From Escherichia phage BF9: a DNA stretch of 44,963 nt. The stretch lies in sequence record NC_073083.1. The stretch is one strand, 5' to 3'. Shown here in pieces: positions 30,877 through 35,100 of this stretch (positions are counted from its first letter, which is position 1; each line of letters starts with the position of its first letter). A program made the position numbers and the translations under genes. The notes beneath the pieces were generated by a model. It made no database searches. It was given only the letters and a program-made list of their open reading frames with translations, and was not told the origin of the DNA.

Positions 30877-31206
30877 TTACTTCGAAGTTTTGTTATTGCG
30901 TACCCAGGAGCGCACGGTGCTCTGATTAATTCCCGTCAACTCGGCGATCATCGCCCATGACTTCCCCTCATCGCGCAAACGGATAACCTGCTTTTTGTAT
31001 TCTTCCATTTCTTCATTGTGTTTTTGCAGCTTGCTTGCTGCCGTGCCGTTGAGCAATTCCAGCTTCGCGGTAAGCTCCTTCTCCGCACGCGATAATCTGG
31101 ACACTTCAAATAACAGAGTATCCACCGCATTTGTGTAATACCAGGATTTACCCGCTTCGCCGCGGATTGCATTAGATAACACTTCAATTGCTTCTTTGAT
31201 ATTCAT
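30877..31206 (-). CDS. Helix-turn-helix DNA-binding protein (putative transcriptional regulator)
   Basis: 109 aa; C-terminal GKSWAMIAELTGINQSTVRSWVRNN is HTH-like; first gene of the leftward operon. Confidence 0.5.
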   Translation of the reverse strand: MNIKEAIEVLSNAIRGEAGKSWYYTNAVDTLLFEVSRLSRAEKELTAKLELLNGTAASKLQKHNEEMEEYKKQVIRLRDEGKSWAMIAELTGINQSTVRSWVRNNKTSK

Positions 31207-31608
31207 AATTCAGTCTCCTGTTGGTTAATGGCCAACGAAACTACACCCAAAACTGCACGGTGTCAAATCCTTTGGATATTGAAACGGGCGCGCACGCGTG
31301 TAATAATAATTCCCGTCTCATTGTCTCTTATTGGTTAGCGCCGGTGCATTTTGCCTCGGCGCTTTTTTTTTTAAATTAGTTGTTGACACCCATCCTGCAA
31401 CCAATCTATTATTCACCCCGTCGACAGGATGCAGGACGCAAACTGGAGAGGGGCAACGCAGGGGCCGGATCGAAGTGTCAGGATTCCCAACCGTGATTAT
31501 ATAACCAGGTCCACTACCCGAACGGGAGAACGCGTAACCTGGCAATATGTTAAGGCCACCGACGAAGTTAACTGCCGACACCTAAACTAAACCAATCGGA
31601 GATATACC
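31207..31608. promoter_or_regulatory. Divergent control region between the leftward and rightward early operons
   Basis: Plus strand: TTGACAcccatccTGCAACCAATcTATTAT (about 31374..31405). Minus strand: TTGACA-N17-TAGTTT followed by the near-palindrome TTGGCCATTAACCAA (about 31221..31235). About 400 bp with no ORF of 60 codons or more that is not antisense to neighbouring genes. Confidence 0.5.
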
Positions 31609-32127
31609 ATGTTTGAGCAAATCGTAAACCTGATCACTCGCGGCGTAGTAGCACTGGAAACCATCGCTAAACATTATGAAACCGTTGGCGCTGCCGTTGG
31701 TAAGCAGGAAGACAAGAAGCCGTCTAAGGCCAAAAAAGAAGTTGTCGAAGATGACGACGATGAAGCCGAAGACGAAAAACCGGCGAAAACTAAAAAAGCC
31801 CCGGCGAAGGGTAAGGCCAAAAAAGAAGTCGTAGAAGATGACGACGACGAAGACGCCGAAGACGAAAAACCGGCTAAGGCTAAAAAAGCACCGGCGAAAG
31901 GCAAAGGTAAGAAAGATGCCGATCCGCTGGCGGAGATGCGCGACGAAATCAAACAGTATGCCGCGATTATCGCCGGTGGTGATGACGACGATGCGAACGA
32001 CGAATTCGACGACCTGCTGGAATCGTTCGAGATCAAATCAATCGCCAAGCTGGAAGATGACGACGTCGAAGACTTCCACACAGAGTTAAAAGAAATCGTC
32101 GAAACCTATTTCGAACTGGAAGATTAA
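31609..32127 (+). CDS. Highly charged acidic/basic repeat protein (172 aa); first rightward early gene
   Basis: Two copies of KKEVVEDDDDE(D)AEDEKPAKxKKAPAKGK, then a DDDD-rich C-terminus; strong terminator follows. Confidence 0.6.
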   Translation: MFEQIVNLITRGVVALETIAKHYETVGAAVGKQEDKKPSKAKKEVVEDDDDEAEDEKPAKTKKAPAKGKAKKEVVEDDDDEDAEDEKPAKAKKAPAKGKGKKDADPLAEMRDEIKQYAAIIAGGDDDDANDEFDDLLESFEIKSIAKLEDDDVEDFHTELKEIVETYFELED

Positions 32128-32129
32128 TA

Positions 32130-32160
32130 TATTCCGGCCCGCAGATTAGCGGGCCTCTTT
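32130..32160 (+). terminator. Intrinsic terminator
   Basis: GGCCCGCagattaGCGGGCC followed by TCTTTTT. Confidence 0.6.
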
Positions 32161-32175
32161 TTAGAGGACGAGACA

Positions 32176-34281: not shown

Positions 34282-34371
34282 CCGCTTAGGCGCAACCAAG
34301 TAGATTAGCAACCAAGCCGAACGGGGTGGCTCACAATAACCCCGATACATGTGAAAATGAGGAATTGGAAA

Positions 34372-35100
34372 ATGGCTAAAGTCAACCTGAAAAATGTGCG
34401 CGTATGTTTCCTTAAAATTTGGGAACGCGACACCCCTAAACAGGATGGTCAAAAACCGGCATACCGTGCAGTGATTCTTCTTGATAAAGAAGATCCGCAG
34501 GTGGACAAAGTGGAAGCGGCAGCGCGCGCAGTGCTCACCGACAAGCTGAAATCCGAGAAGAATGCTGATAAGTGGATGGACCGCCACTACGCCCAGGATT
34601 CGAAGGAATGCGCAGTCCGCGACGGTGACGAGCGCGACGAAGTGACCGAAGAATTCGAAGGCATGTTGTACATCAACGCCAAATCGTTCAAACAGCCTAT
34701 CATTCAAACGTCACTCGGCGAGAAGCAGACTGAACAGGGTCTGACCATCGACGGCGACGAGATTGAAGGCCAGGAGATCTACTCCGGTTGTTATTGCAAC
34801 GTGTCCCTTGATATTTGGGCATGGAACAATACCAACGGCAAGGGTCTCGGGGCGGGCTTGCTGGGTCTGCGATTCCGTGAAGACGGCGAAGCCTTCGGAG
34901 GTGGCGGGTCTTCATGTTCCGACGAAGACCTGGACAACGATGACGAAGACGAAAGCCCGCGTAAGTCCAAAAAGTCAAAACGTCGTGATGACGATGACGA
35001 AGACGACAAGCCGCGTAAGTCCAAAAAGTCCAAGCGCCGCGATGACGACGACGAAGACGACGACGAAGACGAAGCACCACGTAAACGTCGCCGCCGTTAA
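34372..35100 (+). CDS. Single-stranded DNA-binding protein (DUF2815-like) with repetitive acidic/basic C-terminal tail
   Basis: Start at MAKVNLKNVRVCF (RBS GAGGA), internal to track ORF 34351..35100; C-terminus carries two copies of PRKSKKSKRRDDDDEDD. Sits between the nuclease and polymerase genes. Confidence 0.5.
   Translation: MAKVNLKNVRVCFLKIWERDTPKQDGQKPAYRAVILLDKEDPQVDKVEAAARAVLTDKLKSEKNADKWMDRHYAQDSKECAVRDGDERDEVTEEFEGMLYINAKSFKQPIIQTSLGEKQTEQGLTIDGDEIEGQEIYSGCYCNVSLDIWAWNNTNGKGLGAGLLGLRFREDGEAFGGGGSSCSDEDLDNDDEDESPRKSKKSKRRDDDDEDDKPRKSKKSKRRDDDDEDDDEDEAPRKRRRR

Follow-up and report, generated by a model that had tools for sequence, protein, structure and literature searches.

Gene Content and Organization of the Locus

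The DNA analyzed here, referred to as the window, is a stretch of 44,963 nucleotides and is a Dhillonvirus genome. In a megablast comparison, region 31300–32450 matches 174 phage records, nearly all of them from Escherichia and Shigella phages. The records examined among these matches belong to the genus Dhillonvirus, and the best match is phage GeorgBuechner (97.4%). The gene under study encodes a protein of 172 amino acids, and translation of its ORF gives exactly the sequence reported in the initial annotation. The features of the locus are collected in Table 1.

The larger ORFs between ~2.9 and 31.2 kb run leftward and comprise structural genes followed by a 754-aa primase-helicase and a 109-aa helix-turn-helix (HTH) protein. 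From 31.6 kb onward, the larger ORFs run rightward, and the gene under study is the first of this arm. The minimum of the cumulative GC skew lies at 30–32 kb, i.e., in the divergent intergenic region. Together, the strand switch of the ORFs and the skew minimum place the gene at the single divergence point of the genome. The skew minimum also fits a single strand switch, and a replication origin possibly lies nearby.

Apart from the more distant primase-helicase, the divergent neighbor is the 109-aa HTH protein (30877–31206, − strand), whose gene is directly divergent from the gene under study. In public records and in phrog_9366, this protein is labeled as a “putative transposase”. Since its secondary matches are to HTH or DNA-binding families only, and since the same position in related phages is occupied by HTH_3/HTH_31 regulators, it is more likely to be a Cro/CI-type regulator of the divergent promoters than a transposase. 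On the strand opposite to the gene under study, a Ser-rich ORF of 135 aa (31674–32081, − strand) overlaps the repeat region. This ORF is apparently not a gene but a by-product of the GA-rich composition of the coding strand.

Table 1. Positions of the features of the locus in the window.
Feature	Position	Strand	Basis or remark
Copy of motif AACCAAYNRGAGA	31214–31226	−	
TG-extended promoter-like site, TTGAAA-17-AATAAT	31279–31307	+	
Possible small RNA unit: promoter-like site, GTCTCATTGTCTCTTATTGGTTA, hairpin, ten T	31279–31376	+	
Copy of motif AACCAAYNRGAGA	31324–31336	−	
Sigma-70-type promoter, TTGACA-18 nt-TATTAT, 11/12 consensus	31383–31412	+	Motif; upstream of gene
Leader, ~190 nt	31419–31608	+	Start inferred from −10 hexamer
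Copy of motif AACCAAYNRGAGA	31590–31602	+	
Shine-Dalgarno sequence, GGAGA	31598–31602	+	Within leader
Coding sequence, ATG start, 172 aa, phrog_3127 member	31609–32127	+	ORF list, profile match
N-terminal amphipathic helix, aa 1–28, one narrow charged stripe	31609–31692	+	
Disordered linker, alternating basic (K/P/A-rich) and acidic (D/E) blocks	31693–31923	+	AF2 pLDDT <50
Repeat copy 1, aa 40–68, KAKKEVVEDDDDEAEDEKPAKTKKAPAKG	31726–31812	+	
Repeat copy 2, aa 69–98, KAKKEVVEDDDDEDAEDEKPAKAKKAPAKG	31813–31902	+	
Acidic C-terminal domain, aa 106–172, three helices, net charge −20	31924–32124	+	
Intrinsic terminator, 7-bp all-G-C stem, 6-nt loop, T-rich tail	32136–32162	+	
gp2.5-like SSB/annealing protein gene	34351–35100	+	

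Promoter, Leader, and Terminator

Among 18 Dhillonvirus loci, the −35 hexamer of the promoter of the gene is invariant and the −10 hexamer nearly so. The initial annotation had placed a strong terminator directly 3′ of the gene, and this is borne out by a hairpin of seven G-C pairs (GGCCCGC-AGATTA-GCGGGCC at 32136–32155) followed by the T tract TCTTTTT. In the PTXU06 record, a terminator has been independently annotated under the matched stretch. Because the promoter and the terminator bracket a single gene, the gene is largely its own transcription unit and not simply the first cistron of an operon. The earlier description of the gene as the first of an early operon is therefore right about its place at the head of the rightward arm behind a strong promoter, but the operon itself is at odds with the gene having its own terminator. 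Early expression of the gene is presumed. A family member in Salmonella phage MB78 (BFVD match Q9T1Z8) carries the UniProt name “13.88 kDa late protein”, a label whose origin was not traced in the literature searched. If this name reflects real timing data, it conflicts with the assumption of early expression.

About 150 nt of the leader (31432–31583, + strand) form an optional but nearly invariant segment that is present in 14 of the 18 Dhillonvirus loci, the other four (L020–L023) having ~20 nt instead. The leader has no match in Rfam, and its single-sequence fold is unremarkable (z = +1.2). A stem formed by 31499–31510 and 31537–31548 covaries, with AU, UA, CG, and UG observed at one of its pairs. 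In the window, the reading frame of the leader is interrupted by an in-frame TAA at 31588, so the leader is not coding here. Two records, EE09_56 and Opt212 (231–232 aa), annotate the leader as a 60-aa N-terminal extension of the protein, which was located at 31429–31590 (+ strand) of the window (locus L007, 4846–5544). This extension is most likely an annotation artefact, since Met1 of the family and the ribosome-binding site are conserved.

Family Membership and Distribution

The protein matches the phrog_3127 profile over its full length (E = 1.4e-53, residues 1–172 against profile positions 1–178 of 178) and is 95–97% identical to deposited Dhillonvirus proteins. The records of Dhillonvirus, Jerseyvirus, Cornellvirus, and eiAU-type phages label this family (phrog_3127/VOG1545) as “hypothetical protein”. 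The window gene has the same profile and the same genomic position as the family and differs from it in nothing. It is an ordinary two-repeat member of a catalogued, uncharacterized phage family.

A search of 5.8 billion proteins yielded 166 homologues with lengths of 99–239 aa, and an exhaustive search of 1.84 billion representative proteins with a profile of the C-terminal domain (C-domain) yielded only 38 clusters. All 38 are 31–212 aa long and have the domain at the C-terminus. Members are distributed over Dhillonvirus (153 records) and Cornellvirus with related Salmonella phages (17 records). They also include gp41 of the Jerseyvirus vB_SenS-Ent2, a protein of Edwardsiella phage eiAU that was added by structure search, and proteins of GC-rich metagenomic phages. 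Within what was searched, the family is found in phages only. A scan of 185,579 GTDB representative bacterial and archaeal genomes gave no copy within the sensitivity of the search patterns, and there is thus no sign of prophage carriage.

Searches for characterized relatives gave little. When the window protein was scanned against Pfam (E up to 10), the six matches obtained were all low-complexity chance matches, and a scan of 39 family members likewise returned chance matches of this kind, such as BUD22 and GET2. Sequence searches of the PDB with whole-family, C-domain, and N-helix profiles gave nothing meaningful, and comparison of the C-domain fold gave no specific fold relative. With no relative in Pfam, among PDB sequences, or by specific fold, the family is a true orphan, catalogued yet without an assigned function.

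Conserved Ends and Charge of the Protein

With a shallow alignment, the first AF2 run was uninformative (mean pLDDT 48.5). With a diverse alignment, AF2 predicts a helix at residues 2–28 (pLDDT 66–72), disorder at 27–101 (<50), and a compact three-helix domain of 63 aa at 106–168 (~90). The alignments divide the family in the same manner into an N-terminal segment of ~28 aa, a middle part that cannot be aligned, and a C-terminal segment with a constant length of 62–64 aa. Conservation of the two ends extends to members with only ~25–30% identity. The three-part architecture is supported by the AF2 model, by linker lengths of 22–86 aa in 102 family proteins of the Dhillonvirus type, and by three family members that carry a duplicated C-domain.

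In 19 diverse N-terminal segments, Arg11, Val13, Ala15, Glu17, and Ala20 are invariant, and Met1 and Leu8 are nearly so. About 70% of the circumference of the helix is hydrophobic, the rest being one stripe in which acidic and basic residues are paired. This mostly hydrophobic surface implies that the helix must be buried, either in a homo-oligomer, against the C-domain of the same protein, or in the groove of a partner.

The C-domain is formed by helices at 106–123, 127–139, and 150–168. The acidic, DDDD-rich C-terminus noted in the initial annotation is evident in its composition, as residues 106–172 contain 25 Asp/Glu and 5 Lys/Arg, which gives the net charge of −20. This charge is not a conserved property of the domain and ranges from −4 to −19 across the family. 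The whole protein has an overall net charge of −24 and contains 29 Lys/Arg among its 172 residues.

An anti-restriction protein in the form of a DNA mimic of the Ocr/ArdA type would agree with the acidic C-terminus and with the place of the gene as the first after a strong promoter. The initial annotation had raised an anti-restriction role, which we consider highly improbable. Neither Ocr nor ArdA is among the Pfam matches at E up to 10, no Gam profile is matched either, and the C-domain has no specific fold relative. The 29 basic residues argue against a uniformly acidic surface, and the gene belongs to a conserved module (see below), not to the variable accessory genes. In the passage of the BASEL study that compares these groups (PMC8594841), Queuovirinae are described as resistant to type I/II restriction “particularly if compared to” Dhillonvirus and Drexlerviridae. 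Dhillonviruses are comparatively sensitive to restriction in that comparison, which would tend to argue against an effective Ocr-like function. The reservation, made at the same time, that the protein does not resemble a classical DNA mimic agrees with both its basic residue content and its compact three-helix domain. A DNA- or nucleoid-interacting role, also suggested at that stage, is possible.

The Repeat and the Linker

Tandem Repeats Finder detects a repeat with a period of 90 bp at 31725–31898 (2.0 copies, 88% matches, score 278). In codon register, the two copies are identical at 28 of 29 residues and differ additionally by an indel of one codon, a likeness far beyond chance. Two near-identical repeats had been described from the outset and are indeed present, but the unit comprises 29/30 aa and not about 25 aa. 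The codon differences between the copies, eight synonymous and one non-synonymous, indicate that both are kept at the protein level under purifying selection and that the duplication is not brand new.

The emphasis that the initial annotation gave to the repeat does not survive comparison with the family. The repeat region falls in the length-variable linker, which is disordered in the AF2 structure prediction. The repeat is a polymorphism of a variable, flexible linker and not the functional core. Among the 102 Dhillonvirus-type proteins, the linker has no acidic block in 7, one in 44, and two in 51, and a natural member of 115 aa (P0098) has almost no linker. In the phage welsh record, a “repeat_region” is annotated within the middle region of the family gene.

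The linker of the window protein contains 22 Lys/Arg and is near neutral (net charge −3). Its Lys/Ala/Pro-rich tracts, KPAKTKKAPAKGKAKK and KPAKAKKAPAKGKGKK, are predicted to be disordered (pLDDT <50). Local charge segregation exceeds that of 1000 shuffles (p ≤ 0.025) in 26 of 33 diverse linkers, with z values up to 6.7. With the sequence-charge-decoration statistic, which is suited to diblock patterns, linkers and shuffles could not be told apart. The local kappa-type measure did separate them. These comparisons indicate that the sequence and the length of the linker are free, while its charge-block character is conserved.

Disordered charged segments are likewise found in the tails of T7 gp2.5 and E. 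coli SSB and in histone H1 and AT-hook tails. In these proteins, the charged tails make electrostatic contacts with DNA or with replisome partners. Unlike T7 gp2.5 and SSB, the window protein has no OB fold, and unlike in H1 and AT-hook tails, its basic blocks are interleaved with acidic blocks. The R-G-R-P core of the AT-hook is absent from the window protein. In the linkers of several distant members, AT-hook-like motifs are present (KRGRP, KRGRK) or approximated (TRTRK, TRGK).

The polar hub protein PopZ of Caulobacter (DUF2497) consists of a short conserved N-terminal helix, a disordered linker that is charged or proline-rich and varies in length, and a small conserved helical region at the C-terminus. 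The window protein has only this three-part plan in common with PopZ. The PopZ linker is purely acidic, whereas that of the window protein alternates. DUF2497 is not among the six Pfam matches that the window protein gave (E up to 10), nor among the 25 families listed of the 82 matched by 39 family members at E up to 1.

In phage lambda, the replication origin consists of iterons inside gene O. A reading of the 90-bp repeats as replication-origin iterons was set aside here, given that the repeat number varies and that 7 of the 102 proteins are without an acidic block.

Position in the Replication–Recombination Module

For the analysis of synteny, the neighboring proteins of the window were mapped onto 30 related loci. 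A DUF2800 exonuclease gene follows on the same strand in each of the 26 loci with sufficient downstream sequence, and a gp2.5/Enc34-type SSB and PolA follow wherever the locus extends that far. Upstream, the primase-helicase is encoded on the opposite strand in each of the 28 loci with sufficient upstream sequence. A Jerseyvirus locus (L034) outside these 28 keeps the divergent HTH gene, but its primase-helicase gene, also upstream, is on the same strand as the family gene. In the window, as in every related locus that extends far enough, the gene comes after the divergent HTH gene and before the exonuclease, SSB, and PolA. Its conserved domains show 35–62% identity versus 43–69% for the core neighbors, i.e., a similar rate of divergence. 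The fixed position and the core-like divergence argue for a component of the module and against an accessory or anti-defence gene with fast turnover. On these comparisons, the gene is a fixed module component in a large clade of virulent siphophages, with Dhillonvirus, Guernseyvirinae, and GC-rich phages among its carriers.

The SSB gene of the window has a tandem repeat of its own with a period of 54 bp (34937–35061, + strand; 2.3 copies, 90% matches), which encodes DDDDEDDKPRKSKKSKRR blocks. The window SSB ends in the basic sequence PRKRRRR, whereas T7 gp2.5 has an acidic-aromatic tip. The SSB tails of the divergent relatives L002 and L006 also alternate between acidic and basic segments. 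In the SSB tails of three divergent phages, including that of the window, charge segregation is above that of shuffles (z 5.8–9.0).

The main rival to the role that we favor below is also based on this gene order. As an inhibitor of RecBCD comparable to Gam or T7 gp5.9, the protein would use its C-domain to block the DNA-binding site of RecBCD and would protect linear replication or recombination intermediates. It would be expressed first and at a high level, ahead of the exonuclease and the annealing protein. The order of the gene, the exonuclease, and the annealing protein/SSB mirrors lambda gam-bet-exo, the C-domain is all-helical with a net charge of −20, and the annotations of these phages include no RecBCD inhibitor. 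Lambda Gam and T7 gp5.9 are likewise small, acidic, helical, and encoded just before an exonuclease and an annealing protein, but they are without the long Lys-rich disordered linker and the conserved hydrophobic N-terminal helix of the window protein. RecBCD inhibitors (Gam, gp5.9, and HK75 Gp33) trigger the P2 OLD system, which defends robustly against Dhillonviruses, but the authors of that study conclude that OLD activation during infection depends on origin hairpins and is not strictly RecBCD-dependent (bioRxiv 10.64898/2026.07.10.737580).

A short motif, KSIxxxDDDVE, is common to the window protein and Gam at 8 of 12 residues, but the match covers only these 12 residues and has a pairwise BLASTP E value of 0.049. 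Homology to lambda Gam was rejected, as the hhalign probability for Gam (PF06064) is 1.8% and there is no Pfam match to Gam. Three features of the family also count against RecBCD inhibition: the C-domain charge is not conserved, the Lys-rich blocks are atypical for DNA mimics, and the most conserved element is a hydrophobic helix and not an acidic surface. Altogether, we consider inhibition of RecBCD unlikely.

In several hundred sequenced phages of E. coli and Salmonella (Dhillonvirus, Guernseyvirinae), the family gene stands at the head of the replication–recombination module. Many of these phages are candidates for phage therapy or biocontrol.

Expression of the Protein during Infection

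The orthologue of the gene in phage vB_EcoS-EE09 is CDS56 (EE09_56), whose product is 97% identical to the window protein. In EE09-infected cells at 25 min, only four phage proteins have been detected, namely CDS29, CDS40, CDS56, and CDS61 (PMC10673088). CDS61 is the gp2.5-like SSB. The cell-free lysate of EE09 contained 24 phage proteins, and CDS56 was not among them (PMC10673088). A role as a virion component would have spoken against the initial annotation, and the absence of the orthologue from the lysate is in its favor. Based on these proteomic data, the protein is made, abundant, intracellular, and not detectably virion-associated. The family protein is among the most abundant intracellular proteins of these phages, and the strong promoter and the terminator of the gene itself fit such high expression.

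High abundance and a strong sigma-70 promoter of its own would also suit a host-takeover protein that acts on the nucleoid or on transcription in the manner of H1 or nucleolin. Early in infection, such a protein would either coat or remodel host DNA or sequester a DNA-binding protein of the host. The K/P/A-rich blocks are similar to H1-type tails, and the AT-hook-like motifs described above are found in distant members. However, the position of the gene is fixed in the replication module over deep divergence and not in a variable early region, and the net charges of −24 for the protein and −3 for the linker count against strong DNA coating. The host proteome of EE09-infected cells changed only modestly, with 19 host proteins significantly altered (PMC10673088). 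Host takeover is, in our judgment, quite unlikely.

Several Dhillonvirus proteins with published functions were considered and are encoded by different genes. These are the anti-Tmn protein ORF35 (PMC11846954), the 74-aa Ksap1 (10.1101/2024.01.31.578182), and the RAZR trigger, which is the portal protein (PMC13017515). For escape mutants of SECphi4 and SECphi18, the main text of the respective study names only SSB, DNA polymerase, and primase-helicase (10.1101/2022.08.27.505566). The literature search returned no essentiality or transcriptome data for Dhillonvirus or Jerseyvirus.

Proposed Role of the Protein

The explanation that we tentatively favor, while regarding it as somewhat doubtful, is that the protein is an electrostatic adaptor working with DNA and SSB in the replication–recombination module. 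It is favored because the protein, like SSB, seems to be needed in bulk, because the linker is free in sequence and length with conserved blockiness, and because the SSB has a tail of the same type. The protein would act stoichiometrically to organize the replication–recombination machinery of the phage. The N-terminal helix would anchor or oligomerize the protein, the basic blocks of the linker would provide a loose hold on DNA, and the acidic C-domain together with the acidic blocks would contact a partner at its basic surfaces. The likeliest partner would be the gp2.5-like SSB/annealing protein, contacted through its tail or its DNA-binding cleft, since it has the same alternating-block tail and is the other replication protein found at high abundance. 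The tandem repeat would then be one recent way to lengthen the tether and not a functional unit.

We infer DNA binding, oligomerization, and contact with SSB from composition and gene context, and some observations count against the adaptor. The acidic blocks would weaken DNA binding, and the window protein is without an AT-hook core. Some members are almost without a linker (P0098) or have no acidic blocks, so the polyampholyte part is not essential everywhere. The likeness of the linker to the SSB tail is one of composition and could be a coincidence or the result of a shared mutational bias. A host-directed function would agree equally with the conserved synteny, by analogy with lambda gam, which lies beside bet and exo.

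A more far-reaching possibility, which we consider distinctly unlikely, is that the protein is a hub nucleating a membraneless replication–recombination compartment in small siphophages. The buried N-terminal helix would oligomerize, the acidic C-domain would recruit clients, and the blocky linkers and the blocky SSB tail would co-condense with phage DNA. If true, such a hub would explain the high abundance of the protein and SSB among the proteins of the replication module, as well as a linker that is free in length with a conserved charge pattern.

Whether the protein proves to organize the replisome or SSB or to be a new type of host-nuclease inhibitor, elucidation of its role would close a gap in the understanding of the T7-gp2.5-type replication system of siphophages. 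It could also account for the triggering of OLD and similar defences by these phages. The family merits experimental attention since it is conserved, abundant, structurally an orphan, and situated at the head of a widespread replication module.

Divergent Intergenic Region

Within the divergent intergenic region of 400 bp, the + strand carries a second unit of very high conservation, which starts with the TG-extended promoter-like site (Table 1). Its hairpin (31337–31363) is followed by ten T residues and has a ΔG of −16.9 (z = −2.5). Upstream of this terminator, there is no gene on the + strand for it to serve. Among the 18 Dhillonvirus loci, no other part of the intergenic region is as conserved as this unit, and locus L023 has two compensatory double changes in the hairpin stem. 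From these sequence features, a small RNA of ~60 nt (31314–31376) is a possible product of the unit.

A single-stranded segment of 13 nt in the putative RNA, TCTCTTATTGGTT, is complementary to the ribosome-binding regions of two genes, namely the gene under study and its divergent HTH neighbor. With 0.5 copies expected in the 45-kb window, the motif AACCAAYNRGAGA has three, all of them in the intergenic region. Two copies coincide with the ribosome-binding regions of these two genes, while the third, read on the + strand, is an anti-Shine-Dalgarno sequence inside the putative small RNA. This arrangement of sequence motifs suggests translational control of both divergent genes. The observations on the intergenic RNA, on the motif, and on the leader are to be taken as leads and not as conclusions.

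Region 3′ of the Gene

In phage welsh (locus L001, 2335–2448), an extra ORF of 114 nt, encoding 37 aa, is annotated 3′ of the family gene and before the next conserved gene, which corresponds to that of the 83-aa protein of the window. The megablast matches of Zar3M and PTXU06 are ~128 bp longer than the query across the same stretch. Given the extra ORF of welsh and these longer matches, the spot 3′ of the gene may be an insertion site for small accessory genes.
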